Part shown: positions 5,824-53,217 of the stretch, piece after piece | How the letters are laid out: each line of letters begins with the position of its first letter | Position numbering within the stretch: position 1 is the first letter of the stretch | Source: Eremomyces bilateralis CBS 781.70 | Taxonomy: Eukaryota | Strand: one strand, 5' to 3' | NCBI GenBank assembly: GCA_010015585.1 | Contig: ML975161.1 | Length of the DNA: 64,000 nt | The notes under the pieces: generated by a model | What the model saw: the letters and a program-made list of their open reading frames with translations, nothing else | Database searches by the model: none | What the model was told of the DNA's origin: nothing | Position numbers and translations under genes: made by a program

Positions 5824-5912
5824 GCTCGCTTAGCTCAGTTGGTTAGAGCGTCGTACTAATATTCCTACAATATGGTATGCGAAGGTCGCCAGTTCGACCC
5901 TGGTAGTGAGCA
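5824..5912 (+). tRNA. tRNA-Ile (anticodon AAT) with 15-nt intron (5862-5876)
   Basis: Acceptor stem GCTCGCT/AGTGAGC+A. D arm TAGCTCAGTTGGTTAGAGC. Anticodon stem TCGTA/TGCGA with loop CT-AAT-A^A. T arm GCCAG-TTCGACC-CTGGT. Intron at the canonical 37/38 position. Confidence 0.95.
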
Positions 5913-22550: not shown

Positions 22551-24560
22551 AGCAGCAAGTGCATCTTACTGTTGAGTGACATCTTGCAAACCTTGCAGTG
22601 GACCCTCTCGCTGTCCCTAATATTGGACAGGTGTTTCCGCCGAAAGTGCTTGCTAAGGTTAGAGGGTGTGCTGAAGGAATAGACTCGTGTAGCAAGCGGC
22701 AAAGTGACGTTACCACGACAAAGAAAACATATCGTCGGTCGCTTTTCCTTAAAGACCGGCAACAAAGCGGCCTCTATTTCCTTTTATATTGGCTTAACGG
22801 AAGCTGCTGATCAGTCGTTATCCTCCTTTTTGATCGACAGGTGCTTCGTCTGACCTCGAGAGCGCGTTCGGCTTTTGGGTATGTCGCCTTCTTCGATTTT
22901 GCAATACTCTGTGACGGCGATGATGGCCTCGTTCCGCTGCCGGAACTCCTCTGCGAGAGTGTTCCCTGGTGGGACAAGTATGAGCGCCTCGATCAATCGC
23001 TTCTGTTCCGGACAAGTCTCGTCCGCGAGGTAAGACGCAACTATTGGCTTTTGGCTGACCTTCACACCGGACAGCTGTCGTTCAATCGCTCGTACCGGGT
23101 CTTCCTTCCCCTATTTCTCTTAAATCTCCACAAGACGTGATGTCCGAAGGCGTTGCTTCTTACTTATTATCGTCTTGTTGTGTTCAATATACTTGATATG
23201 CTTCGGACTGTAGCGGCGTTTTAGTCAGTCCCGATCCTGCAGAAGAGAACGAATAAGAGGGCTTTGGTTCACCGAATCTCCTGCTCTGCGGTAAGGCCTA
23301 GGGTCGATTCGGGACTATTCATCGGATCATGTTACAAGCAGCTTGCATGACTGAGTCTTGGGGCTGGGGTCACCGCAAAATTGCGGCAGCATCTACTGTC
23401 ACTCGTCGATGGAGGTAGTGTTTAAGAACGTCCGTGGATAATCGTATTGCATCATCAGGTTCTGGAGCGCCTCGCTGACGTTGCCTACAGAAGAACACCA
23501 CTCGCATCACCCAAATATAGCATTAAGGGTAGGCCACATACAGATTTCATGGAAAGCCTTTCCAACACCATATCGGAGTGCGTATGGGCGCAGAAGCAGC
23601 TTAAACCTAGTGAGCTCGCCGACCTTCCATCGCATACTGGATGGTTGAGTACTCTAGAGGCTCTTCCTTAGATATCTCCCATCCCTCTGGCGTTTTAATA
23701 GCTTTTCGGAAAATCGGAGCATCGTCTAGGTCAGATCGTAGCGGAAGTGGTAGTTGTTGATGATCTGGCTCGATATCCAGCCTGCTGAACAGCGTTGGAG
23801 AGGTAAGACTTGGTGCTACGAAAGCTTGATCATCGAAAATCAGACCCAGCAGGAGCACGTGCGGGCTGTAAATCAAAGACGGATCATATATGATCTCTGG
23901 GGTTGGAAGCGTGTTTCTGTGCACTAGTAAGTAGGTTATATAAAAGGAAGAGTAGCTGTAAGGGAGCAAGTGTAAGGAAACGCAACGTAAAACTCAACGT
24001 ACATGAAACGCTGTACCTCGATCCGGATTCTCTTATGCGAATATCTACTTTTGACTGCGTACAAATTTGTCCGCAGCGCTTCTTTCAGATCCTCGACATA
24101 CATGCACGGCTTTTCCCTGGCTTCCTTTTTTAATCCGTCTCTTCGATAGCTTGCTCAGCACCCGAAAGAGTGTTAAAATGGACCGTTGATCTTGTCGCCA
24201 GTGGCTCGCTTGTACACAAGCCGATAGATTTTCCAGTATGTGCCCCAAGAACTGGCCAGTTTGGTCCCTCGAAGTCGCCGTCCTTCCTTCCCGCGGCGCT
24301 GGCTGAGCAGCCAGTGGAAAAAGTTGTGCAATACTTTGATTGATATGGCCTGGTACATCTTCTTAGGGTCTTTTCCGGTATAGGTACAGTATCTATCCAG
24401 CGTCAGAGAAATGCAGCAATATGGAAGAGAAGGCCATGCTACGAACTGGTGCCACTGCGCTTCGCTCCGATCGAGGACGAGAGTAGTGCCATCTCTAGAA
24501 TAACTTTTTAGGAGAAAAAGGAAAGTGGAGGGGCGGTATAGATTCGATTACTCGTCGCTC
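22551..24560 (-). pseudogene. DUF3435 tyrosine recombinase (Starship captain-type) with C-terminal C2H2 fingers, pseudogenised
   Basis: Segments in order: TTLVLDRSEAQWHQ^YCTYTGKDP; LHNFFHWLLSQRRGKEGRRLRGTKLASSWGTYWKIYRLVY; EKPCMYVEDL; NTLPTPEIIYDPSLIYSPHVLLLGLIFDDQAF; RPYALRYGVGKAF; NLMMQY..LKHYLHRRV; EEFRQRNEAIIAVTEYCKIEEG; RPTICFLC..NLSKHFRRKH..CKVC. Many frameshifts and stops. Confidence 0.85.
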
Positions 24561-37496: not shown

Positions 37497-38828
37497 TCAG
37501 TTCCATTCTTCGGCGCTGGTTCCATCATCGCTGTCACTACTGAATTCGAAATTTGCAACCCATCCCATCATATCTGCAGATACTTCCGCATGAATATCCC
37601 AAGTTTGATGACTGAGCGTGTGAATTATGTCTTTTGCCACAAACACGACCGCAGGGTCCGCAATAAAGTTGACAAGATCCCAGAACACTGCAGTGCTCAT
37701 ACTCTGGTCATCAGTTAACTGAACGCCGGTTACAGCAAGCGAACTGAGCCTGAACGCCCAGTCTTCTGTTTCGTGTATGCTTCTCGTGATGAGCGTTAGG
37801 AGGATGTGCAAGTAGAGGAAACGTCTCGCAGGACGATTGTCGTTCTGGAATTTAAGTTCCTTTCCGTCAATATCAGCCCACCGGTATGTGCCAGAGCCAT
37901 ATGTACGCTCGTCGTTAGTGCCCTCCAGCTTTTTGGGGTCCAGAACGCAAGCTCTGAAGATTGTTGGCTGGCAACCCTGATACAGCGGTACGATTACCAA
38001 CTCTTTCCGATCAAATGCCTGTTCAACGTCCCTGTGTAGGAACAGCCCATTGGTGACGTCCATGAGACTCATTTTTGTGGCCTTGCCAAAGACCGCTTTG
38101 AAATTTTTTTCTCCAAACGAATAAGGAACAATATGTGCTGCCGTCACGCTCTTGCGTGGTAGCCAGTGCTGAGTTACTGGGCACCAATATTTATCTTCAT
38201 TGCGGCAAGCATAGAATTGTGAAACGTCTATGCTGAATGTTGCTTGTCCTGGTCTGGTTTTCCGTCCTGACTTCTTAGTCACCCCGTGATCCAGTGTGTT
38301 GCTCGCAGTCGGATATGAGTATGCTGTTAGGAGAGCATTACCCATTCGTCCTTCGGTCCTATTCTTATTCGCTAAGGCCCTTCGATGACAATGTAAACGC
38401 CACAAATTCCGGAGAATGCGATTCCGGCACTTAATAAATGTATGTCTGTCGAGAAGGCTGCGGCTATGTTGATCACGAAGCACACTTTGCGCAAGCAACC
38501 ATAGTTTTTGTTGGACTCTTATCCGTTCATCTTTCCAATCTTGGATTTCTTGTGGAGATCCGCTTGCGAACTTGTGGTCTTCTACCAGCGCATTCATCAG
38601 ATTCGCCCGAGACGGTCCGATACTATTGATGTCGTCACATAGAAATTTGCAAATTTTGAGCTCATCCTTCCAGGCAGCTGAATCAAATTGAATGAGTTCT
38701 AAAACGCCTACTGGGTCTTGGGGAAGAGCATTAAGGACGCCTTCGAGTATATCCGGTAATGTCGATTGGACCTAGCTTCGTCAGCTGTCTCAATTATTTA
38801 GCGGATATAGATGACTGATTCGTACCAT
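37497..38828 (-). CDS. HNH endonuclease (HNH_2-like), ~425 aa; probable ATG-only first exon, intron 38825-38772
   Basis: WCPVT..VTAAHIVPYS..NGLFLHRDVEQAFDR..VIVP..DIDGKELKFQNDNRPARRFLYLH. The frame is open 58 codons upstream of the listed ATG, up to a CTGAC..TAG acceptor. Confidence 0.85.
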
Positions 38829-40834
38829 TTTTGTTCATTGATGGATTCAGAAATACTTTTCGGTTTAATGAGATGGCAAAAGGCATTAGGCAATGAAGAA
38901 ATAGAATTAATATGCTCACATGTCGAGTTAATATGCGTCCGCTCTCAGCATTGGCAGCACGCCAATGGAGAATTCAGGCAGCAGAGACATGCATAATGTC
39001 AGTGTGGCCCACAAGGCTGTGAGGCATAATTATGTGCAAAATGAGGTTAGGGCTCTGGCCGTTCGCGCAGAGTGACGGTTGGGTTATTCCTTCTGTACTG
39101 GGTAGGTAATTATGTGGGTGAGAGATTTCCTACTCCCTCTGGCCAATCACTCCGCTCGCTGTAGCGCTGACAGTATCCATGGTGCATCCGTGCATGGGAG
39201 CGAAGACTGTTTTCGTACGTGCTCAAAGAACCTAGCGTGAGTGATTAAGAGGTGCTAAGCTCTAAGTGAAGAAGACTCTAAATGTAACGGATCAATTGAG
39301 GAAAAGGATTGATTCCTTAGAACTTTGTCGAATTGCTTGGAGAACGAGAAAAAGAGAAGAGAAGCTTCTTCCGAAGTCAGAATTATCTACATGCCGTGGG
39401 CGAACAGGATGGGAAGGCCCATGAGGCAGCAAGGCACCTTCCCAAGGCCACTAGGCCAACAACCATCAGTCTGGGCAACAAGCCCAAGACTGTTAAGTTA
39501 CAGAGAAATGGAAAAGATTAAAGTTCTTCCTTACCTCCCACAATTCATAAGGCTCTCCCAGCCTTGTGCTGTTGCATACGAGGATGCACCACTAGTACAA
39601 GATGTGGAAGAACTCCTCACTGTACAAGTATACGTAGTAGGTATATATGTACCCTGCTAGTGACCAGGGCGATGAATGAAACTTGAGGGGTTTGAACTCC
39701 AACGTCTTCTCTACTTTATCTCAGCCTTGTCCGCAATCGTGTTGACCTTGATCGACTTCCAGCTTCAGAGTTGCGTATGGGTATGTACCTAATCACTACC
39801 TATCGTCTCAGACAAAAAAGGCCGGGGTTTGGAGTTTAGACAAACCTCGCTTATCTAGGCTAGAGATTTCAATGAATATGGGCAGTGACAAACCTTTCGT
39901 CAATAAATTGATGGCCTTGCCTTATATTTAACTAGTAATCTTAGCAAACATGCCTTTTTAGGTATTATACCGAAATTGTTACACAAAAAAACACACCTGT
40001 TTTCGCAGGGTTCTAGTACCAGTCCATGTAACAGAAGAAAAGCGATCTAGAATTTGGACACGGAGAGAGGATTATATATAGAGATTTGGCGACCCACCCG
40101 TTAGATAACAGGGGTGGCCGAGTGGGAATCTGAACCACCTGAAATACTGGATTTTAGGAAAGCTCAATTAAGTTTTAACAGAACTTAAACCGATTACTTG
40201 GCAACCGGACGAAGTCTGCACTCATTCTATGCTCTCCGAAGCACTACTGTAGTCTGATTTCGATGAATGTTGAATCTGCCCCTCAAGTTTCCTTTCAGCC
40301 ATCATCATTTTCCTGTACCTGAATATTTGGTGCATATTCCGATCGATGCGGACATGGGATTCAAGGTCAGAAAGACTTCCTCGCTGCACCGGCGATCACT
40401 ATGATTGTTCACCCGCAGTCTAAATCAACCTATATTAGTCCGGCTTCCCCATAACCGCTCGAACCGATACACCCAAAACATGCACCAGAGCTGGTAGGAT
40501 TGTGGACATGTGTATCTCTAGACAGCCATAATTAATCACCACTCCAGGTAATGTTAAAGTGCGCCTGTGAGGATGGACCAAACGTGGTTGCTATTTCGTG
40601 CTCGTCTTGCGGGCATCTTAGATGTGGCAGTTGCCCTGTTACCTATGCCCCAAAATGACAGGAATCTGATGGGAGAGAACGTCATCGAGCGCTTGTGAAT
40701 CCGGTTGGAATCCGACGAGTTAAACAAAAGCTCCATGTCATCCTTAGATCCACTTTTTACTACTCGCAGCATATACGCATTTCCACCGACGATACGGGAG
40801 CGGTCTACATATTTCTAAAAGTATCAATTCGGGT

Positions 40835-40953
40835 ACATACGGCCACATCAACTTGAATATAGGGCATCCCGTCCGCTCTGCCGTACTCAAGCAGGTTAGA
40901 GATAGAATAGTACTACGGTGGGTGACCACGTGGGAACTCCTATTGCTGTATGT
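40835..40953 (+). rRNA. 5S rRNA gene, copy 1 (119 nt) followed by oligo-T terminator
   Basis: ACATACGGCCA...AGGGCATCCCGTCCGCTCTGCCGTACTCAAGC...TAGTACTACGGTGGGTGACCACGTGGGAACTCC...TGTATGT+TTTT. Terminal helix ACATAC/GTATGT. Confidence 0.93.
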
Positions 40954-41040
40954 TTTTTTTTAATGACCATTATGTCAAGTTTTTCAGTGGGCGGAATGGA
41001 TTTATGGTCGTTTATGATGCGAAAAGCTTCAACTTATAGT

Positions 41041-41159
41041 ACATACGGCCACATCAACCTGAATATAGGGCATCCCGTCCGCTCTGCCGTACTCAAGCAG
41101 GTTAGAGATGGAATAGTACTACGGTGGGTGACCACGTGGGAACTCCCATTGCTGTATGT
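41041..41159 (+). rRNA. 5S rRNA gene, copy 2 (119 nt) followed by oligo-T terminator
   Basis: Identical to copy 1 except at three positions. Same terminal helix and T tract. Confidence 0.93.
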
Positions 41160-41234
41160 TTTTGTTTTTGTTTTTGTTGACACGGTCTGGATGCGCAAGG
41201 TCTGCGATTACCAAGTTCCATTAATCTAAACTGA

Positions 41235-41253
41235 AGAGAGAGAGAGAGAGAGA
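41235..41253. repeat. (AG)n microsatellite
   Basis: agagagagagagagagaga seen directly. Confidence 0.9.
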
Positions 41254-41469
41254 AGAAATCTCCCGGCACCTTTGTGCGCGAGATAGCGACTCTCCTCTCC
41301 AATGCCCTAATGCTGTGTTACCATGTTTGTTTGCTTCTCTGATATAATCCACCAGCCACGTCTTCAGCCACAACCAAGGGAACAGGCCGCAGGCCTGGGA
41401 CCATAACAATTGTTTTGTTTATATTTGCAGATTGCTAGGCTTATGTAGTGAAAGGCTTCACTTCCTAAT

Positions 41470-41492
41470 ACATACGGCCATATCAACCTGAA
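41470..41492 (+). pseudogene. 5' fragment (nt 1-23) of a disrupted third 5S rRNA gene
   Basis: ACATACGGCCATATCAACCTGAA matches copy 2 at 22/23. It carries the same upstream motif as the intact copies. Similarity ends abruptly at 41492. Confidence 0.88.
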
Positions 41493-41675
41493 CAAAACGA
41501 GGACGACGGAGCAAATCCATCCATTTCGTGAGGGCAAGACCCTACGAAAACTGCTTTGCCCCTGCAAAATTAGCCGCTTCTACTCTCAAACGATAGGGAC
41601 GGGAAGGAGTGTGAATAGGGTGTAGGGGTGAGTAGATAGACGGGACCTGTATGGACATTAGGCTCCTAGCGTTTA

Positions 41676-42157
41676 TCTCAGTTGGGACTCAGACAGGATC
41701 TGCAAGATGCTTGTGGCGGTGCAGGCATCTTTCAGATGCCGTCTGAGGGCCTTTTGCAAGCATTTTGGTGGGCGCGTAGGTCAAAGAGCGAATTTGGCCC
41801 CTACAGTGCACTAAACCCCACCAAAATTCACGACCAGAGTCTCTCCAAAAGTTCAACTACGCGTGCCCTTCGAAACCGCCGATGCTAATCCTTTATTGTA
41901 GGCTTATTTCGATATATTTTTTAACATACTATAAAAGAGTGGGTTCTTTTACCCTTTACCTAGCCTCGCGTAAACTTTCGAGTACTGAAAGTTAAAATGG
42001 TTGACTGAAACGGCTGGGAACTCTGAAAACTTCAACTACGCGTCCACACAAATCTTACAAATGGACCTCAGACGGCATCTAAAGATGCCTTGCCTGCACC
42101 GCCACACTATAGTCACTTGCAGCGTCTGAAGATACCGTCTGAGCTTGCTTGCTGAGA
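41676..42157. mobile_element. MITE-like element (~480 bp) with ~110-bp imperfect inverted arms
   Basis: Left TGTGGCGGTGCAGGCATCTTTCAGATGCCGTCTGAGG (~41712-41748) versus right CCTCAGACGGCATCTAAAGATGCCTTGCCTGCACCGCCACA (~42066-42106). Similarity extends both ways to the termini TCTCAG/CTGAGA. No ORF. Confidence 0.75.
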
Positions 42158-42818
42158 AGTTGTGGTCGGGTCAATCTGGTCGTCGTCCCAAATAGGCCTC
42201 TGGCCTAAATGGGCTCCGCTCCCCATGCTGACCGAGCCCAATCCGGCTCCTTAACCCAACTAGCCTTCCATCCTAGTCTAGAACTAGCCTCACGAAATAG
42301 ACCCAGGCTCCCAGGCAATATGTAGCAAGGTGCCCCTGTTGATTTCAATGCCATGGAACAATCCTATGCCCATAACAATGGTGGACAAATCTCAAATGCT
42401 GATCCCCATGCTTAGAATATGCCTACTTTGCACTTACGAATTCTTTCCTACTATCTCCATCCTTGAATGATATCATCTATTGCCGACCTCTGGTTATCCT
42501 GGTCTATCGAATGGGAAAGACCGTCTTAGGTTGCCTAGTGCACTTGCCTAGTGCACTTGCCTAGCAGTATTAGGCTCCGCGGTCGTTCTCCCCAAACATT
42601 CCCACGCACCGCAGCAATAGAGCATTCCAGCAGCAACTCTCCAGTCCACGTTTCTCCAGCATTTAAATCGTGGAGTATGGCATTCCAGCGTCGAAGTCCC
42701 AACGTTAGCAACAACCCTCTGGCATATTCGACCTCTTGTGGCGTCATATCCCCGCCGAAAACCTAAGAGCATCCTATCGTCATTCAAGTTTCCGTCGAAA
42801 ACCGTCACAACCTCTCTT

Positions 42819-44094
42819 ATGCCCGCTATCAAAGCTCGCCTTACCCCACCGCTTGGTCACGGAGGCCGCGTTCCAAAGCTTATCGTGCGCCATCCTCACT
42901 ACCCGGACTGCAACACGCTTGTTAAGCTACCCGCCCTAGATGACGGCGACACAGTCGACTACGATGTAGCCCTCATTATCTGCGGCATCATCTCCGACAA
43001 TAGCTGGAGCACCGGCTGGTTCGCTCGCTCTGCCGATGGCAGCAAGGTGTGCAAGCCAGGTGTGCCGTTAGTTGCCTCCGATGGTGACGTCTTCTACTTT
43101 GTCAGCGATTGGAACTGTAAGTCACAGCGATGATTCATTTGCCATGGCCAGGCGCCTCTAACAATAGCTTTCTGCAGACAAATACCCCGTATATGTTTCG
43201 TGGGATCACTGGCGTCTCCCTGGTACCGACGCGGACCTCCCCTCCGCTTTCTCCACCCTCGCGATTGATCCCTCACCGCCCTCACTCCGCAACAGCGGCT
43301 ACGTGGAGGACCTCAAGGGCCGCGACCAGTCGTGCCGGGTGTCGGGCATCATTGACTTCTGTGAACAAGCGCACCTGGTTCCGGCGGGTGAGAGGGAGTG
43401 GTGGGACTCCAATATGGGCGAGAGCAGCGACCTGGAGATTCAATCGGCGCTGAACGGAATACTATTGCGAGCCGACCTCCACCGGTCGTTTGACGCCGGC
43501 ACATGGGTACCGATGGTAAGGGAGGGGGGCCGGCTAGTTGTATACGTGGTGCGAACAGTCGACGTGTCGAACCAGTTCGCCGCGCTGTGGCATAACATCG
43601 AGATGCAAAACCTGGTGGGTGTCGACCGGCGTTGCCTGTTCGCACGTGTCGCGTGGGCGGTACTGTCACTGCATCAAGAGTTTCTCGCCATCCGGCGACT
43701 AGCGAGCGACAACCTGTTGGTGCGGATGAAAGATGGGGAGCTGAAGGAGATGGCGCCTGAAGTGTTCAAGCAGTTTTCGCGCTCGTGATCGAAGAACCCG
43801 AGCCCAACGAAGCGGCCGCGATTGCAGGCGCTTGAAGAGGATGGCGGCGTTATCGTCGATGTGGAGCTGGGTTGGAGTTATGAGGCCGGTGACGAGGACG
43901 CTGACGAAACAAGAAACGACTTGAAGGAGGACAAAGAGCACCAACTCTACGACGCTGACGAATCGGTTCCGTACCACCGCGGCCGCAAACGCTTACGGAG
44001 CCCGGTGCCAGTTCCACCATGCGACCTCGACCTCGACCATCGCTGCATGCCGATAACCCCATCGAAATTGCAGAAGCCCACAGCTGTGCGATAG
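42819..44094 (+). pseudogene. Fungal HNH endonuclease gene (intron 43117-43177) with one in-frame TGA at 43786-43788; may still yield a truncated protein
   Basis: RHPHYP..LPALD..ALIICGIISDNSW; KYPVYVSWDHWRLP; RDQSCRVSG..EQAHLVP..EWWDSN..NGILLRADLHRSFD; LFARVAWAV. Then SRS*SKNPSPTKR continues in frame to 44094. Confidence 0.85.
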
Positions 44095-44204
44095 GGTATG
44101 CTCTCTCATCCGCTTGTCCTCTAGCAGAGCTCTTTTATCTGGTTTAACAAAAACGGTGCGCTTCCCATTCAGGACTGTCATATCGTGTTACGTGAGGCTG
44201 CGCT

Positions 44205-45045
44205 AGGGTCCCCTGCCTCTTGGAAGGTCATCTATTCCATCGTTGAGGGCTGCCCAACTAACTACTGGTGGAATCTTGACACCGCTAAGAGGTGCGTCCC
44301 GGGTTCCGGCGACATCAAGTGCGTCAACGCATTCAACTTTACGATTCCCCCAGGGGTCAAGAATGGCGATGCGATTTTCGCCTGGACCAAGTTCAAGAAC
44401 CTCGGTGAGCGCGAAATGTATATGAACTGTGCTGCCGTGACAATCACCGGTGGTCAAGACAAGCTCAATGAGCTTCCGCTTCTGTTCGTCGCGAACATCG
44501 GCGAGATTTCCGGATCTTGCGGGACCACTCAATCCGTGAACGTCGACTTCCCCAACCCAGGCAAGTACGTCACTACAAAGAAGCCCGCTGGTCCCGCTCA
44601 ATCCAGTTCCCAATCACGGTCCCATCGAACTGCGGCGCTGCTAAGGCTCCCGCTGGTAACAATCCCCCTGGTGGCGTCTTCGCTCCCGGTGCCTCTTCCG
44701 CCGCACCCTCGGCCTCTCCCTCTTAACGCTGCCCCCGAGCAGCAACCCGCAGTCCCCACTACTGCGCCGGTCTCTTCAAAACCTTCGCCCGCGGCAGCCC
44801 AACCGCCACTTGCTCCGGCCAAGCCTGTTCCTGCCGCCCCTGTCGCTAATCCGCAATGTTCGTGCGCAGCCGGCCAGGTCCCATGCTCGGAGACCGGATT
44901 TTACTGCATCGATGGTACGACCTTTGGGCAGTGTGCCTGGGGATTCGCGACGCCGATGACTATGGCGGAGGGTACGAAGTGTGAGGCGAATACTGTGACC
45001 TGGTCTATGCGACCATTAATGAGGAAACATACACTCCTCTTATAG
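44205..45045 (+). pseudogene. 5'-truncated AA11 lytic polysaccharide monooxygenase with C-terminal Cys-rich module
   Basis: WKVIYSIVEGCP, FTIPPGVKNGDAIFAWT..NLGEREMYMNCAAVTITGG, LFVANI, DFPNPG. Linker GGVFAPGA is in a shifted frame. C-terminal CSETGFYCIDGTTFGQC..MAEGTKC. No signal peptide or N-terminal His. Confidence 0.8.
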
Positions 45046-45141
45046 AGCTACCGTCTGTGTGCCCGACGGGCCATCACGGAAGACAACGTCTGAGCATATG
45101 TGTAGGCTACACCTAGCAGTGCTGGGGAATCAGCTTGAGCC

Positions 45142-46650
45142 TCACACTTCATCGTCATTGGGTCCATCCAGGTTAATCGGCCCCAGCGTAACGCTAGGGC
45201 TGTGAGTCGATGAAGCGACAAGAGTGAGCTTGTCTCGTTGATATCCTCGAGTGTCCCACGGAGGCGGCGAAGAGGAAACGGACGGATACAAGGCACCAGG
45301 ATGAGTCGGGATAGAGGTCGTGCGCTTGCCCTGGTTGTCGACCAAGGGAAAAGTTTGGGTGGGAGAATCTCGGCTCTCATAGTCCCGCTTGTAGCCCGTC
45401 GGCGATTCCCAATTCTCGTTGTTGAGGAGCAGCCTTGCAACGTCGAGCCGATTATCCATAGACAGGGCTAAGCGAGGCATGGCCAGCTGTTGAGACCAGG
45501 CGTCCCCAAGATAGTGAAGAATGCCGCCAATCTCACGGTCCCCAATTCCCTTGACCCACCAGAGGTCATCTATCGTCTTCATGAATATCAGGTAGTGGGC
45601 GAGGATGATGAGGGCGCGGGGCTGACGTTGGCGGCCAAGTTCGACAAAGGCCTCGGGGATGAAAGTGGACCAGGTGAGGATGCGGAGGGTCACGATGGGG
45701 CTAAGACCTTCTGAAAGCGCAGAATAGAGGGATCCGAGATACTTAAGAGTGGTGTAGTATGTGCCAATGTCGGAATACTCTGGATCGTCCATCTTAATGG
45801 AGGAAATGACGGAGAGCAAGTCGCTGGGGATATGGAAGGCGGCTTCATTCAGGTCGATGGAGGGTCTGAGGAACAGTTCGGCCATGCCCAACTCCCAGAG
45901 TCTCCGAGGACTCACCATGTCTATCATGAGACTGATACCTCTCCAGACGACCATCCAGTCCACGATGTGCAGTTCGCTGGTGCTCTCTTCGCGAAACATT
46001 TGGGATGACAGATTTGTGATAAGCAAGGAGCACGCTATGAGAGCCGGGAATGTCTCGGGCCTGGCCTTGTTGATGGCCATCCGGTAACCCTCGAGGGCAC
46101 GGACACGATAGCGGACAGCGCGGGAGGGCTGGATGTCCTGATTCAGTAACTGGAGTTGTAGTGCCGAGGTGGCCAGCAGGCAATCCATCAAGAAAGGAAA
46201 TTCAAAGGCATGGCGAGGTATCTTGACTTTCAAGATGTCGTCGATCCGCTTTGCCCTCCCATCTTGGATGGCAAAACAGTACCTATAGGTGGTAGTGGTG
46301 TAGAACCACAGCAGCTTCATGTCAACGGCATCCCTCTCAGACGAAGGCATGAAAAGTGGTTCGTAAGTTAGGGTGGTAAGAATTTCATGGTCGCTGATTC
46401 CTGGTGAGCTGGATGCGGCCGAAGAAGACCAAGACGTTGATTCTTGCTGAGATGGTGAGGAACCGTGGTAGACACAGGCAGTGTTGCGCAAGATGCATCT
46501 GCGACAAGTCGGACGAGACTCATCGCACTTGACCTTGCGGGATTTGCAGGCTTTGCATCCCGTCCGTGACTTTCTATGAGGCCTTTTGGGGTAGAAGGGC
46601 TTCTCATCGGGGAGTGTGGTCTGCTCGGTAGCTTCCACGAGAGTTATCAT
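45142..46650 (-). CDS. Zn2Cys6 transcription factor (Upc2-like), ~502 aa, intronless
   Basis: KRPHRKSRTGCKACKSRKVKCDESRPTCRRCILRNTACVY; DMKLLWFYTT; AFEFPFLMDCLLATSALQL; QPRALIILAHY. Uninterrupted ORF. Confidence 0.93.
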   Translation of the reverse strand: MITLVEATEQTTLPDEKPFYPKRPHRKSRTGCKACKSRKVKCDESRPTCRRCILRNTACVYHGSSPSQQESTSWSSSAASSSPGISDHEILTTLTYEPLFMPSSERDAVDMKLLWFYTTTTYRYCFAIQDGRAKRIDDILKVKIPRHAFEFPFLMDCLLATSALQLQLLNQDIQPSRAVRYRVRALEGYRMAINKARPETFPALIACSLLITNLSSQMFREESTSELHIVDWMVVWRGISLMIDMVSPRRLWELGMAELFLRPSIDLNEAAFHIPSDLLSVISSIKMDDPEYSDIGTYYTTLKYLGSLYSALSEGLSPIVTLRILTWSTFIPEAFVELGRQRQPRALIILAHYLIFMKTIDDLWWVKGIGDREIGGILHYLGDAWSQQLAMPRLALSMDNRLDVARLLLNNENWESPTGYKRDYESRDSPTQTFPLVDNQGKRTTSIPTHPGALYPSVSSSPPPWDTRGYQRDKLTLVASSTHSPSVTLGPINLDGPNDDEV

Positions 46651-47487
46651 CCTGTATCCGTATACGTCGTTGCGATCATCTGTTAACAATTTCGTTGGAC
46701 GGCATAATAAGACACATGTTTTGCTTTAGCATGCGGCCTGTAATTATCAAGTATCTGAAGTCTCCTGTCTCCCGCATTCGCAACGCCCGGTCCCTGTCCA
46801 GATCGCATACAGGGGCCCTTCGCACTCGCTTAACCGCAGATGCGAAGCTTGGGGCCAATCGGAACAAGTACCAGCGATGCCTGCGCAGTTCGGACGAGTA
46901 CCCTGAGGCCTGAACTAGGTAGTCTCCACTAATGACTATTTCAACTTCTATGCCCAACGATACTGCCACAATGCGCATCAAATGCGAGAGTTAATACGAG
47001 CGAGTTTCGCAACCCTACAGTCACCGGCTCTTTTGTGCGTGACACATACTAGGGTTGTCGTGTCGAATGTCGGAACACTCTTGTAAGTGGTAGGCGAGTG
47101 AGAAAGGGCTACAAGTTGCGCTCCAGTCAGAGATTGGAAAGTGAGTGCGAAGTCGTAGGCGAGGACCTTGGAGTCTGTGGTTGCTGTCTATCGACAACAT
47201 GGCGCTCAGATCATTGCTTGGTCTTGTTCCGATCTGACCATTGATATATAAGAGATACGGTATGCTTCGTTCCCATGATCTTGGTTATGCTTAATTACGA
47301 AGCGTATCTCCTCATCTTGGTGCCAACATCTCTGCGGCGTTGGCGTTTCTACCTTGTTGCTACATGTCCAAGGATTTGGTGTTGTCGAAGGGTATACAAT
47401 AGAGACGAGGAGATATACGAATCTCTTAACATCGACACTAGTTCACTACTCAGTTGATCCAACTCGACGAATTGGTTCCAGCTCACC

Positions 47488-48622
47488 ATGGACGCTGAAA
47501 CGGCAACATCATCTGGCATACCTCCGGAAAATCTTCACCAACTTCCCAACGGGACCTACGTTCACCGCGGCATGTTCAACTCCTTCGGTCCTGGCGCGAA
47601 CTGTACCCTTGATCTCTGCCCCATTGAATGGACCGTCTACCAGTATCGCCCGAACTTGCCCGTCAGCATTGTCTTCATGGCTCTCTATGCCATTGCCCTG
47701 ATCATCCATATCTACCTCGGCCTCCGCTGGCGCAGCTGGGGTTTCATGACCTTCATGGTCATTGGCTGCCTATACGCCATCATCGGCTATGGCGGTCGAG
47801 TCATTCTTTGGACAAACCCATGGTCGTTTGCCGGTTTCATGATCCAGATGGTCTGCATCACTGGGACACCGGTATTTTTTACGGCTACCATCTACGTGAC
47901 ACTATCCAGAGCGTACGCCTCGTTCTCTCTACTACTCTCTTCAGAGACACCATACTTCCACTTATGAGATTGAAACTAACAATACACCAGCATTCGCTTC
48001 TTTGCCCTCGAAATCTCCCGTCTCCCGCCGCGGCTCTTCTACTGGCTGTTCATCTCTGCCGATATATTGTGTCTGGCCCTTCAAGCCATCGGAGGCGCCC
48101 TCACATCGACCTCCAGCGGTTCCTCCCAAATAGGGGTCGACATCGCCATGGCCGGCCTCATCCTGCAGGTCATTATCCTGGTCATCTTCTGCGGCTTCTT
48201 CGTCGACTACATGATTCGCTACGTCAAATTGCAGAGGTCCCGCATGAGAAGTAAGAAGAACACCATCGCCACGCGCCAGCGCCTTTTCTTTGGAGGGCTT
48301 GCGTCGGCCATTATCCTGATTCTAGCGAGGTGCGCCTATCGTGTTGATGAGCTCAGTCAGGGGTACAGCGACTCTACCAAAATCACGGATGAGCAATTGT
48401 TTATCGGATTGGAGGGGGTGTAAGTTCCATCTCAGTTTTATTGAACTGCATGAAAAGACGCGCTGATTGTGATATAGCTTAATTTATGTTTCCGTCATTT
48501 CTCTCTTCATCGGACACCCTGGATTTGGGTTCGAAGGAACTGGCCCTGAGCATGACTGCCCAAGCGTCGAGAGCGGCGAGGAAATGATGAGACCTAAGGA
48601 ACATGATGGAAGTGACGCATAA
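47488..48622 (+). CDS. RTA1/RSB1-family lipid-translocating exporter; introns 47913-47990 and 48420-48477
   Basis: CTLDLCPIEWTVYQYRPNL, IGYGGRV, FMIQMVCITGTPVFFTATIYVTL, DILCLALQAIGGAL, IAMAGLILQV, RCAYRVDELSQGY, LEGV..HPG. Intact after splicing. Confidence 0.93.
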
Positions 48623-49189
48623 AGACACTCGAGGGGTCTGCTAATTGCCGCGTCTTGGTGACGAGAGAGAAAACTGAAAGGTCCCTCTGTTAGAATTGAC
48701 AATTGCAGGTCGTCTGGTTTCCCTTGCCTCACTACCACGCACTTCTCCATCGGCCTCTCGTACCCACCGTGATCGAGCCAGGATTCCACCCTCTGCAGGA
48801 TATCGAATGCTTAGACTCTTCGCCTATGCGTTAGCCGAAAACGAAATGGCGCTCTAGCGAACGCAACCCGTCACATGCAATTCGGGTTCGGACGTTTCTT
48901 AGGGCACGTGCTTAGCAACCATACGCATTGCTTCGCAGCCAAAGATGGCCGGCACAGCTTTCTCCACACTCTTCTTTGCGTGTTTTTCTTACCACACGGT
49001 ATTTGATGGCAGGCACTTAGCCACACGCATACTCTCGCACGCTTCCAGCCCCACATCCCCTTACTCCGCACGACCGTAAGCTGCGTCAACTTAAGGGGGT
49101 CACGAGATCATCGGTCGCATGACTAACAAGGAAGCACGCCTGGATTTATTGATCTTCCCCGCTAGAATCAACGTTAACCCCTTCGGCTT

Positions 49190-50160
49190 AGATATAGATA
49201 GCATTGATAGATATTTCGGTGTCAACTGGGTAAAAGATGATATATCCGACCGCTTAATGTATGTCTGACCTCTATTAGCTAGGCCACTCCTACGCCATGA
49301 ACCTCCTTTATCCGCTTCTCCGTAAAACCTCGCAGTTCCCTGATATACCTCCGCCGCCCATTGTCTTCGAAGCGTCCGAAATGCACCGTATGGCACCGTC
49401 CAACGTGCATTTCGCTTCATTTGAAGAGACCAATAATAAGTCATGGATGGGACCCATCTCTATGGCCGATCCAAGCTGGCATTGATCCTTGGTGCCAAAG
49501 GTATAGTTCCTAAAGTTATTGAACCGATTGGAGACAAAGACCTCACATTGTCTGTGTATCCAGGAACTGTAAGTATGGTTTATCATTTGCAAAACCATTA
49601 TTGACATGTCTTAGGTCAACACATAAGTAACGGATACCGTGTTCAAGATGCTACTACTGACATCCTTCATGCGATATGCAAAAACCATGGCAGAATGAGT
49701 CGTCTTTACATGAAACGTTCTCCGGTAGAGTTGCTAACACACCTTAGATATATATACTGGTCTCACTGGGAAGCTTGTCATAGCTGCCATGCAATTCTTA
49801 GGGCGCGATCCAAAGTAGGGCGCATATAGTGCATAATAAGTCAAGTATACCTGTACTTCTACCAGTCGCAACTGGTAATTAATACATAGTCATAGATATA
49901 TAGCTACCAGCCCTGAAATCGAGGAGAAGAACATGAACGGATTCTACTTTAATGACCCGGTAAGTCTGAGATCAACGGAATCGCGTGCGGAAGATTGTCA
50001 TTAGACCGTAGCTAATATATCGAACAGGGTAAACCCAGGAAGGAGACCTCCCAGCCATCAGACTCGAATTTGGAGGCTTCGCTGTGGACTTGAGCACCCG
50101 GATAATTGAGGACAAGCTAGGCAAGGGAACATGTTCTGAAGCCATGGAACAAGGCATAAG
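49190..50160 (+). pseudogene. 5'-truncated short-chain dehydrogenase (retinol-dehydrogenase-like) pseudogene
   Basis: IDRYFGVNW^LGHSYAMNLLYPLLRKTS..IVFEASEMHRMAP, frameshift, LYGRSKLALIL (YxxxK), SVYPGT^VNT, ATSPEIEEKNMNGFYFNDP. Rossmann N-terminus absent; stops and frameshifts present. Confidence 0.8.
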
Positions 50161-50248
50161 AGGTCGAGATGATATAAAAGGAATTTGTTCGTGAGGGAAG
50201 GCTGAAGGGCTTCTAAGCCTCTTGCTGCAGACGCACGAAACAGTCCTC

Positions 50249-50589
50249 CTAATCCACTTTTTCAAGTGTTCCAGGGTTGTGTGCGACCAACTTCCCCTTC
50301 TGATCTGTAAACAACACCTAGAAGCAAGTAAAATCAGCATCGATGTTGGATAGACCAAATTTGGCCCTGGGCTCTCGCCTACCTTGGGCGGATTCTTCAC
50401 GCCCTCTTTCTTTGCCTCTTCCTCGGTGGTCACGACTTTCTCAACCTGGGCAACAACATTAGACCTAGTGGATTGTTAAAGTGAACTTAATTGACTTACA
50501 TCGCCCTCATGTCGACCGCCTCTGATCTTTGTGTAAACATGATCACCTTTATGGATCGGCTCGCCCTGCTTGGATTTGATTTCAGGCAT
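50249..50589 (-). CDS. 73-aa HVA1-Tudor (hypervirulence-associated / DUF2945-like) protein; exons 50589-50500, 50445-50383, 50317-50249
   Basis: Spliced translation MPEIKSKQGEPIHKGDHVYTKIRGGRHEGDVEKVVTTEEEAKKEGVKNPPKVLFTDQKGKLVAHNPGTLEKVD*. Two clean phase-0 GT-AG introns. Confidence 0.8.
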
Positions 50590-50749
50590 GTTGAAGTGAG
50601 GTGTCGACGAACTTGGTTTCTTTGGGACAGTATTTCAGCGTACTTTGTTTTTACGCAATCGGTGCTAGGTAGGGAACAATACAGAATTGGTATCTTAAAA
50701 TGTAGTCGCAACTACTAAGTACTGATTGTGAAGGCAACCTTTGTTGAGT

Positions 50750-51435
50750 ACTGTGTGTATGACGTCATGGTAATCCAACATATGCTTTTGCGTCATACCC
50801 GTACGGAAATACTTCACGTCAACAATCTAAGAATGAGTTAACTTTTAAAACAACTTGGGCAAAACTAAGGAATACCAGAGGAACTAAGTAATCGCAGGAA
50901 TGATCTGTCACTGGAGCTCTGAATTACGATGCTCAAAGGTCTGCTATCACTCTCCCGCCAGGTGCACGGCATAGAAAGTGTTGGATCGAAACGTGTCTTA
51001 TTAAGAAACTTAACAAATGAGAGTATTATATACAGAGTATCAATCACGTGCCTCATAACCTCCGATGTTCTCCCGGCTTTGGTCTAACAAAAGGGCTGAA
51101 AGATCAGCACGTGACAGCGAGGCGTTATGTCCTGGTGCTGCAGAGCAAACCAAACGGGCCACAAGGCCACAAGGCATCCAGGTCTACGAGACACATGCAT
51201 CAAGGTCTACGAGACATCGCGAACTTATCTAGTGGATGTGAGTGTAGGTCATAGGCATGATAAGTCCAGGTGTTTCGTACTCCTTGAAGAGCCACATGGC
51301 GTAGCCGCGCTTGTAGGTAGTTCTGTCCGACACTGGGACCGTATCGTCGACTGGCTTGCTCTGGAAGCCAGCTAGAAGCTCCTTTGCCTCATGTTCTCCG
51401 GCTTCGCCCTTTCGAATAGTGCGTCGTGGCGCCAT
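50750..51435 (-). pseudogene. Truncated N-terminal remnant of a putative captain-like (DUF3435) tyrosine recombinase
   Basis: MAPRRTIRKG...VSDRTTYKRGYAMWLFKE followed by a phase-2 intron, comparable in position and phase to ..QWHQ^ of the 24-kb DUF3435. Later exon KYFRTGMTQKHMLDYHDV aligns with EKPCMYVEDL. Catalytic half absent. Confidence 0.5.
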
Positions 51436-51548
51436 AGTCAAAGACATATCTTGGAATAGACGCCGAGAATTTTGGCTGCGTGGAGCGTTGATAGCGTCGA
51501 CTACCTCCGAACCCGATGGAACTGGAACTGAAGAAGAGTACTGTAGAG

Positions 51549-51629
51549 CTGCGAACGGAGCTCCGGACTGAGGGCGAGACTGTAAAAACTGCGAACAGGA
51601 CACCTGACTGAGAGCGAGACTGGAAAACT
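51549..51629. repeat. Degenerate 40-bp tandem duplication upstream of the captain-like remnant
   Basis: ctgcgaacggagctccggactgagggcgagactgtaaaaa / ctgcgaacaggacacctgactgagagcgagactggaaaa. Confidence 0.75.
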
Positions 51630-51731
51630 AGGGAGAAAGGGCATCTTTACTATCCTTACCAGAGTGTATTTTCGACGGGCCCTCGTCTTTCGGCGGTATT
51701 TACCCTCTGTTTTCGACCTCGTTTATACCGC

Positions 51732-51766
51732 TGGGAGACCATAGGGGAACTCCCATTGCTGTATGT
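51732..51766 (+). pseudogene. 3' fragment (nt 85-119) of a disrupted 5S rRNA gene, with oligo-T terminator
   Basis: TGGGAGACCATAGGGGAACTCCCATTGCTGTATGT+TTTTTT. The last 22 nt are identical to copy 2, and the TGG-GNRA-CCA hairpin is retained. Confidence 0.88.
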
Positions 51767-53217
51767 TTTTTTGTTTTTGGTGCTCTTGGCCATATCTTTT
51801 TGCACAAGGCACATACCGCGACTGTGGGCCAGAACCTTACTGCCGGAACGCTATCATGGGGAGGACTCAGAGGACATTTCATTAGGCATGATGAGGAAGG
51901 GGACCAGGCATGGCTCATACCCTACATATATCAAGTCGGCCGGCATATGCAAGGCTGGTCCTTTGATACAATAACCGGAGACTGAAACCTCCCCCAAATC
52001 ACGAGTCTCTTAATTCCCATCGGCTCGCCTGGCCTCGGGATGGGCCTTATGTAACATAGAATTCAATATTCCTCTTGAAGTGGAGGACTAGTCTCAATTA
52101 GTTCAAGGCTCGGACAGAACTGGAATAGAAAATATACCGCAGCAGCTGACGTTTGGCAGTCACGAAATGGCGGACGAGTGCGCCACCAGCACCAGCATCC
52201 TATATATGACGGTCGTATTTGCCGTCCTTATCATGTTGACCTAGCTGGCCACCGCGTGACGGGCGGAGGAGAGAGCGGAGAGAGAGGAGTGGATGAGGGG
52301 GAGGAAGCGGGAACGGGAGGAGAAGCAGCAGCAAAAGCACTAAATGCGTAATTATCTCTTCCAATTATACCACAATAACCACATCCCCATCTGGCCTCCA
52401 GTTCACTAGACAATCCCGCATTCGTTTACCTAGCGACAAATGAAACACACCTATCACCATTCGCAAAACCTGCCCATCCACGCGTCAGGAGACGACTACC
52501 AGCGCGGACAGTAGACGTGACTAGGTATTGACGTACACTATTTAGCGAATAGGGAGACAAGAAGGGAGAGAGGGGGTTGCGCAACAGGTGAGGCAGTGCA
52601 TTGATGATGTCCTGGTTCATCTTGCAAGAGGCTCTTCATTCTTGGCTGTGGGATAAGCGAAATGCGTTGACGCGGCGAGCCAGATATTCAGAGAGTGGAG
52701 AGTGTAAAGTGCTAAGGAGGAAGGGTTTCTGTCTTCTGAATATCGCAATCTCCGCTTCACTTTCCACCATTGATAATTTGATATATTCCCCCACCCCGCA
52801 TATCACTTGGATTGTGGATTCAGCATACCGGTAACTTAATCCGTGCGCCTACAACTGTACAGCATCGTCGCTCATATTTACGCTTTGCTCCTCGTGCACA
52901 AATACACATCCCATCTCTGAACCGTGGACTCTGCTACACAGGCAAGTTTCAACCATCCCCAACCATAGCATTGGACCCCTGCGAGCTGGATTCGAGCCTA
53001 GAAGAGGGGAGGTTCCCTGAGATTAATTTCCCCGGGACGGGGGTACACATCTAGGCTCCACAGACAACAGGGCTTCCGGTCAAGCGTCTCATCACCACTC
53101 CCTTATACCTACGACCATGAAACGAACATACTGTACTGACTACTGACCTTTTCAGCATCCTGCCTCGGAAGCGCCTTGCGAGTCTTTCACTTCGAATATA
53201 CCCAAAAATCCGTCAAA

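Follow-up and report, generated by a model that had tools for sequence, protein, structure and literature searches.

Organization of the Locus

We analyzed a 64,000-nucleotide stretch of the genome of Eremomyces bilateralis CBS 781.70 (assembly GCA_010015585.1, contig ML975161.1), referred to here as the window, in which a 5S ribosomal RNA gene is split by an inserted element of approximately 10 kb. Contigs of this genome are given C-numbers, the window being C13:186001-250000, and the four classes of element ends found beside 5S fragments are designated T1, H1, T2, and H2. The element (41493-51744), which contains no N, has T1 at its left and H2 at its right. The first-pass annotation of this DNA had regarded these as Starship ends in 5S ribosomal DNA (rDNA), and this part of it stands. 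The element as a whole is a dead, captain-less hybrid Starship remnant, and it fails as an autonomous Starship.

A fragment identical to 5S nt 1-23 (41470-41492, plus strand) runs directly into the left junction at 41493, where T1 (41493-41671, plus strand), the tail of a type of element with its insertion site at 5S nt ~18-23, begins. H2 (51213-51744, minus strand), the captain end of a type that inserts at 5S nt ~95-105, extends to the right junction at approximately 51744; identity to 5S resumes at 51745, which corresponds to nt 98, and the fragment of nt 98-120 (51745-51767, plus strand) is followed by a T-run terminator. The 74 nt between these fragments (5S nt 24-97) are missing. The ends lie at different 5S positions, nt 23 versus nt 98, and no target direct repeat was found at 41493/51744. 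An earlier placement of the right junction at 51731 is ruled out, as 5S identity begins at 51745; the bases at 51729-51741 are an element-borne look-alike of 5S nt 82-94 (11/13 identical). The trinucleotide CTG, put forward as a direct repeat, is indeed present at both 41488-41490 and 51731-51733, but it is not a target repeat: the left copy is 5S nt 19-21, and the right copy faces nt 84-86, which read GTG in 5S.

Within H2, a captain stub (51277-51435, minus strand) encodes amino acids 1-53 of the DUF3435 recombinase P0001 with 92% identity. The rest of the captain gene beyond these residues is lost from the window, and the element contains no intact captain and no match to PF11917.

The split gene is the third of a 5S tandem. 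The first intact gene, 5S-1 (40835-40954, plus strand; Rfam RF00001, 83.4 bits), abuts an upstream flank (39930-40834, plus strand) that is paralogous, at 79% over 966 nt, to C1:484045-484880, which borders a canonical T2...H2 insertion (C1:484881-532011). Spacer A (40955-41040, plus strand), common to 5S tandems or fragments on C6, C5, C19, and C1, separates it from 5S-2 (41041-41160, plus strand; 85.1 bits), whose 3' end (41138-41163) is repeated at 51745-51770. A diverged spacer B (41161-41469, plus strand), recognized by spacer alignment, then leads to the split gene. Beyond the element, the downstream flank (51768-52124, plus strand) is paralogous to the sequence beyond C1:532011, at 75% over 906 nt including H2, its first ~130 nt being patchy. 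A 5S cassette of ~1.3 kb is in this way duplicated at C1:484045-532352 (75-79%). Spacer B is interrupted by a 231-bp TG...CA repeat (41178-41408), which we infer from its sequence to be solo-long terminal repeat-like. It is 99% identical to one copy on C2 and 97% to another; at C2:788266-788492, as in the window, it interrupts spacer B ahead of the beginning of a 5S sequence, though at a different point of the spacer.

Two Types of Element in the 5S Genes

T1 is present in 11 genome copies, all 11 after 5S nt 23. H2 has 22 copies, 20 of which precede 5S nt 98 onward, while the remaining two are joined at the same core directly to T2. T2, with nine copies, follows 5S nt 105 and in two cases is fused head to tail with H2; H1 precedes 5S nt 9-13 onward at C5:504827 and C19:7433. 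Two element types, both inserted antisense to 5S, account for these ends: type 1 (T1 + H1) at nt ~18-23 and type 2 (T2 + H2) at nt ~95-105. T1...H1 pairs with a TCAACCTGAA-type target repeat (nt ~13-23) are found on C19 (470 bp) and on C5 (9.2 kb), where a DUF3435 gene lies near H1. T2...H2 pairs with a GGGAACTC repeat (nt 98-105) occur at four loci: on C20, on C2, on C1 as a 47-kb element (analyzed except for 12 kb of its interior), and at C1:1600258-1607282. Both T1...H1 elements are followed by the 5S middle and T2, that is, they stand in doubly hit arrangements.

Head-to-tail H2|T2 junctions, at C1:1607275 and C2:778739, reflect tandem accretion at the GGGAACTC core, and such a junction is equivalent to the predicted circle junction. 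The 470-bp element (C19:7410-7911), which has no more than the two ends T1 and H1 and lies within a 5S gene, is a candidate minimal non-autonomous Starship. At C1:2386224-2387700 and C2:1625940-1626350, an H1-like subterminal sequence is joined to the 5S upstream region and nt 1-23, with T1 following; this is possibly a head variant that restores the 5' part of 5S. At C1:484881-484996 and C20:162457-162585, copies of 5S(1-105) adjoining T2 carry short insertions near nt 71-81, which may be footprints of another element; the two elements to which these T2 ends belong are 97% alike over 1.2 kb.

A genome-wide census gave 34 5' pieces, 23 middles, 34 3' pieces, and 13 intact genes of the main 5S type, with two divergent-type genes in addition; others may be concealed by N gaps. 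Spacer A or B adjoins 12/13 intact main-type genes, and for eight of these genes the nearest element end is no more than 700 bp away. The divergent type (C5:444425 and C1:1125158), 81% identical to the main type, differs from it at nt 98-105 and nt 17-28 and has no element end adjoining it.

A Motif Shared by T1 and H2

The first-pass annotation had drawn attention to a 12-mer in inverted orientation at the two junctions and had concluded from it that both ends belong to one element family. The motif itself is present as described: AAACGAGGACGA lies at 41495-41506 (plus strand), 2 nt inside the left junction, and the reverse complement of 51713-51724 (motif on the minus strand) is AAACGAGGTCGA, an 11/12 match. 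The right-hand copy, reported as 7 nt inside its junction, is in fact 20 nt inside the 5S nt-98 boundary, the right junction having been misplaced. The sub-motifs TTTTCGACGGGCCCTCGT do recur at 51669-51686, and TTTTCGAC is found within H2 of the window at 51669 and 51710.

An inverted match of at least 11/12 within 50 nt of each junction was obtained in 5/3000 random window pairs and 11/3000 shuffles; when 100 nt per side were allowed, 102-105/2000 shuffles reached the same score. The p-value accordingly ranges from 0.002 to 0.05 with window size, for a match that was chosen after the fact, and we regard the match as unusual but not decisive. Across the genome, the pattern AAACGAGGWCGA has 27 exact matches versus 12 for a reversed control. 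Eleven lie elsewhere, and the 16 at 5S junctions are all in T1 (exact in 7/11) or H2 (exact in 9/22) at fixed offsets. The motif is thus not absent from other 5S-fragment junctions, and a genome-wide enrichment beside them, proposed as a check on the first-pass annotation, is found (16/27); it arises because the matches are copies by descent within two end classes and not independent occurrences. T2 has at least four mismatches to the motif in 9/9 ends, and H1 or H1-like ends have at least three in 4/4, which is the background level. As it is absent from T2 and H1, the motif was rejected as a terminal inverted repeat (TIR) of the canonical T1...H1 and T2...H2 pairs. A longer inverted similarity between T1 and H2 was also rejected, a second block seen by eye having failed to lengthen the local alignment.

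We consider it improbable that T1 and H2 represent opposite ends of a single family with AAACGAGGWCGA as a captain-bound asymmetric TIR. Such a family would explain why the inverted match is so rarely equaled in 50-nt windows (5 and 11 of 3000 by chance), why the offsets are fixed, and why T1 is paired with H2 at six loci, and TIRs are reported for 18/20 curated Aspergillus fumigatus Starships in the accessible text of one study (10.1101/2024.06.28.601215). However, T1 and H2 each pair with another, motif-less end, and do so with a proper target repeat; these T1...H1 and T2...H2 pairs already largely refute the proposal. The window ends have no common target repeat, and the loss of 74 nt of target is unlike one recombinase crossover; Hephaestus, according to passages of its description (PMC10104507), excises without a footprint. 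The central G of the motif is retained in 11/22 H2 ends, the match falls to p ~0.05 in 100-nt windows, and a doubled TTTCGAC word, with two copies in 15/22 H2 ends, occurs in only 1/11 T1 ends. The 12-mer is a conserved subterminal word of two end classes, and sharing it does not show one element family. For its inverted match, coincidence is a likelier explanation than a functional TIR, although the recurrence of T1...H2 pairs may leave room for a functional role.

Captains and a Probable Recombination Core

Captain genes adjoin H2, pointing inward, on C9, C1, C2, C6, and C34. The C9 captain, P0001, matches PF11917, and its gene number is classed as fam09, that is, Arwing, in Tables S4 and 1 of PMC11162782. 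By sequence, then, H2 appears to belong to the Arwing family, with the window stub in the expected place and direction. The recombinases near H1 are more distant: that on C5 gives a strong PF11917 match and is 23% identical to P0001, and a divergent remnant near the H1-type end at C1:2386224-2387700 is 27-30% identical to P0001, with no homolog among 571 candidates. The window also contains, at 22559-24442 (minus strand), a degenerate DUF3435 captain with internal stops and 84% DNA identity to the C5 H1 captain; no H1 end or 5S piece lies near it.

GAGAGTT-ATGGGG-AACTC is the sequence of many H2 ends, TCTC being the continuation in T2. The inverted pair around a 6-bp overlap facing 5S nt 95-100 is likely to be the recombination core. 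In the window the likely core spans 51729-51752 (plus strand) and would comprise the look-alike arm at 51729-51741, the overlap TAGGGG at 51742-51747, and then AACTC. At C2:1676599 the element-type 6-mer is found at the left junction, which is what staggered cuts would leave where the overlap is mismatched. The sequence of 5S nt 71-86 recurs in inverted orientation within T2 (3/2000 shuffles), and that of nt 33-44 does so within H1 on C5 (6/2000 shuffles) but not within H1 on C19. Target specificity most likely derives from 5S look-alike arms around the 6-bp overlap.

Recurrence of T1...H2 Hybrids

The combination of ends seen in the window is not unique. Among the 11 T1 ends the partner is H2 in six and H1 in two, with no partner assigned to the other three. 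The six hybrids, on C13 (the window), C34, C1 (twice), C2, and C46, are 8-19 kb long, and BLAST and nhmmer searches over 641 kb found no H1, T2, or 5S middle inside them, the C2 hybrid being searched apart from its two N gaps. At a seventh locus, C1:1007443-1039191, an nt-23 left junction is present without T1. The hybrids share almost no cargo. In the H2 tree, where 3/19 inner branches are well supported, hybrid heads are scattered among T2-type heads; the T1 tree has no supported branch. The window element and the captain-bearing hybrid at C1:2371906-2386246 are 96% identical in H2 and 91% in T1. Over the six loci, four metrics of age matching between T1 and H2 gave rho of 0.9, 0.62, 0.9, and 0.06, with a Mantel p of 21/720; C1:1007443-1039191 was left out, its T1 being lost.

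Repeats lie just inside the ends, a miniature inverted-repeat transposable element (MITE) adjoining T1 and a high-copy repeat standing just inside H2. In the window the former is a MITE-like high-copy repeat (41672-42149, no strand assigned) directly inside T1, 94.8% identical to a copy on C1, with inverted arms at 41712-41779 and 42036-42106; it is a candidate deletion breakpoint.

There is little likelihood, in our judgment, that the T1/H2 pairing is a short-read assembly artefact or that it arose when elements from separate loci recombined. Publicly available contigs from the probable source sample do break at these repeats, none spanning the element, and two N stretches, of 155 and 865 nt, interrupt the C2 hybrid. 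The window element, however, is free of N; its left and right flanks both correspond to a single paralogous 5S cassette, an observation that speaks against translocation or misjoining; and the same layout is found at six loci, five of them gap-free.

Origin of the Hybrids

The history that we favor, with confidence that is evenly balanced, is that one 5S gene was hit by two element types and then locked by internal deletion. The third gene of the tandem would have received both types, giving the order 5S(1-23)-T1...H1-5S(mid)-T2...H2-5S(98-120). H1, 5S nt 24-97, T2, and the greater part of the captain would then have been lost through deletions whose breakpoints probably lay in small repeats, one example being the MITE that adjoins T1 internally. 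Being without a matching pair of recombination sites, the product could not excise, and such remnants would accumulate. The doubly hit T1...H1-5S(mid)-T2 loci are the intermediate that this history predicts and favor double insertion followed by deletion, as do the scattered hybrid heads, the near absence of common hybrid cargo, and the MITE inside T1. Also counted in its favor are the constant 5S positions of T1 and H2, the T1...H1 and T2...H2 pairs with their target repeats, the inverted 5S arms in H1 and T2, the absence of the motif from these two ends, the identities of the window element to the hybrid at C1:2371906-2386246 (H2 96%, T1 91%), the high-copy repeat inside H2, and the match of both window flanks to one cassette.

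Several observations weigh against this history. Hybrids at 6/11 T1 ends, versus two true T1...H1 pairs, would call for many independent deletions; T1 and H2 look age-matched at the hybrid loci, by some measures only; and they share an 11/12 word that is absent from their usual partners. The further difficulties concern the 5S sequences around the elements, and they are also the evidence for a different account, possible but in our estimation doubtful, under which T1...H2 is or was a mobile composite that carries a 5S piece with a spacer and restores an intact 5S gene. Its circle would read H2-5S(98-120)-spacer-5S(1-23)-T1. Crossing at 5S nt 95-105 would leave an intact 5S gene, spacer, 5S(1-23), T1...H2, and 5S(98-120), which is the layout of the window; crossing at nt 18-23 would place the spacer and an intact 5S gene on the right, so that a working 5S gene would be restored either way. 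The window would be a left-type product, and the hybrids at C1:2371906-2386246 and on C46 right-type products. In that event the 12-mer might serve the captain as an accessory site, inverted around the circle junction.

The true target repeat in the window would, under mobility of the composite, be 41138-41163/51745-51770, an exact direct repeat of 26 bp that appears only if the boundary is moved to 5S-2, the 3' end of that gene and the right junction having 26 identical bases in common. Relative to the C1 paralog, the paralogous flanks do put the start of the inserted DNA in 5S-1 rather than at 41493, and the insertion includes spacer A, 5S-2, and spacer B. Spacer B and a 5S gene stand on one side in 4/6 hybrids. 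H2 is followed by the 5S 3' end, spacer B, and another 5S gene at 6/22 heads and by spacer A at 2/22; spacer B follows H2 in 0/4 T2...H2 pairs, and the left junction is at nt 23 in 3/3 spacer-B heads with a known left end. Sister elements on C9 and C1, 97% identical over 3.5 kb, share a spacer-B subtype and differ in their outer flanks. The contact of 12/13 intact main-type 5S genes with the two shared spacers belongs here as well, as do the age matching in two of the four metrics with the Mantel test and the circular intermediates reported for Hephaestus in the accessible part of 10.64898/2026.09.21.753150.

A mobile composite is difficult to reconcile with other results. The hybrids on C34 and at C1:1607275-1626404 have no adjacent spacer or intact 5S gene, the hybrids have almost no cargo in common, and their heads do not form one clade; the nearest-neighbor age test is null (rho 0.06). 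A spacer-B tandem without an element occurs at C9:16779-17085, so that arrays may already have existed before insertion. In public reads or contigs, where the flank occurs only in the probable source sample, neither a circle nor an empty site was seen; another run, with coverage of just 5S and portions of conserved genes, likewise gave no empty site, and the left junction pattern had 0 matches in metagenome contigs. A backward joint of 51771 to 40956 was rejected as a circle; its depth is single-copy, and chromosomal copies on C6 or C5 explain it.

Cargo and Neighboring Genes

Four cargo genes lie between the ends of the window element: an HNH_2 endonuclease-domain gene (exon at 43168-43788, plus strand; PF13391, E = 6.5e-10), an AA11 lytic polysaccharide monooxygenase-like open reading frame with a Pro/Ala-rich tail (44125-45045, plus strand; PDB 9exj and 4mah, E ~1e-18), a Zn2Cys6 transcription factor (45142-46725, minus strand; PF00172, E = 3.1e-9), and an RTA1-like membrane protein with two exons (47458-48423, plus strand; PF04479). 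The AA11-like reading frame is common to the captain-bearing H2 elements on C9 and C1 (93-97%). Indices of repeat-induced point mutation within the element are near background. Another HNH_2-domain gene, immediately to the left of the 5S cassette (37497-38771, minus strand), hints at a larger accessory region, and an intron-containing tRNA gene is found at 5824-5912 (plus strand).

Significance

Starships in 5S rDNA are already known, and dead remnants are common. What the literature covered here did not describe is a genome in which most 5S sites are occupied and ends belonging to two target-site types have been joined again and again, the 5S middle being lost, and in which 12/13 intact main-type 5S genes stand on two recurring spacers. 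The locus also carries a caution: an insertion-split 5S gene together with a shared short motif does not suffice to identify a single element. From the aligned ends (11 T1, 22 H2, 9 T2, and 4 H1-type), a testable model of the captain recombination core can be drawn.

Were there a composite Starship whose two ends derive from different 5S-targeting families, with a 5S piece and spacer at its circle junction, as we tentatively entertain, each insertion would leave an intact 5S gene, and repeated visits would build tandem 5S arrays, with spacers in common, at scattered loci. Starships would then be both destroyers and dispersers of fungal 5S genes, and AAACGAGGWCGA would be an acquired captain site on a foreign end. 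A mobile composite of this kind would offer a mechanism for multiplying dispersed fungal 5S genes and a way for a selfish element to spare an essential target from exhaustion.

Comparison with Known Systems

In the accessible text of Gluck-Thaler and Vogan (2024; PMC11162782), a strong association of Arwing (family 9) with 5S rDNA is reported, 5S target sites number at least five, insertions are said likely to disrupt 5S, and no element is listed for E. bilateralis. The window element resembles Arwing in its H2 stub, 92% identical to the fam09 captain P0001; it differs in having no intact captain and another end of a different type. The core given there, CCCG/GGGC, differs from the H2/T2 repeat GGGAACTC at nt 98-105, and GGGAACTC and CAACCTGAA had 0 matches in the supplement of that paper up to within Table S10.

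Voyager (fam10) of Macrophomina phaseolina inserts 20 bp from the 5S start, according to the available text of 10.1101/2021.12.13.472469, and the T1 junction is at nt 23 in 11/11 copies. Aligned by hand, the Voyager repeat GCCCTGTATTCT matches nt 20-31 of E. bilateralis 5S antisense at 10/12 positions, adjoining the T1 junction in the same orientation, whereas the repeat of the T1/H1 pairs extends over nt ~13-23. With lengths of 74-124 kb and matching ends, Voyager copies are unlike the window hybrid. The divergent 5S type, which has no element ends, resembles an untargeted 5S variant of Macrophomina mentioned in the same text.

At the A. fumigatus hotspot of Osiris, Starships likewise fragment 5S copies, and intact 5S genes are enriched ~10-fold; the passage available (10.1101/2024.06.28.601215) treats 5S enrichment as the cause of the hotspot and speaks of no hybrid ends, 5S-middle loss, or travelling spacers. 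The portion of a Pyricularia preprint available (10.64898/2026.01.28.702382) yielded no passage on rDNA or target sites. No description of hybrid ends or of 5S-restoring Starships surfaced in the literature covered, which largely excluded subscription papers and curated repeat tables.

Integrative and conjugative elements (ICEs) and prophages with tyrosine recombinases integrate at att sites in tRNA genes, undergo tandem accretion, leave locked remnants, and restore their target by carrying its 3' end. The elements described here are comparable in their apparent att-site integration into a conserved RNA gene, their tandem accretion, and their locked remnants. They differ from the tRNA-gene ICEs in that Starship insertions, in the accessible text of PMC11162782, likely disrupt 5S. 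By this analogy, the window element works like a locked tandem-accretion remnant.

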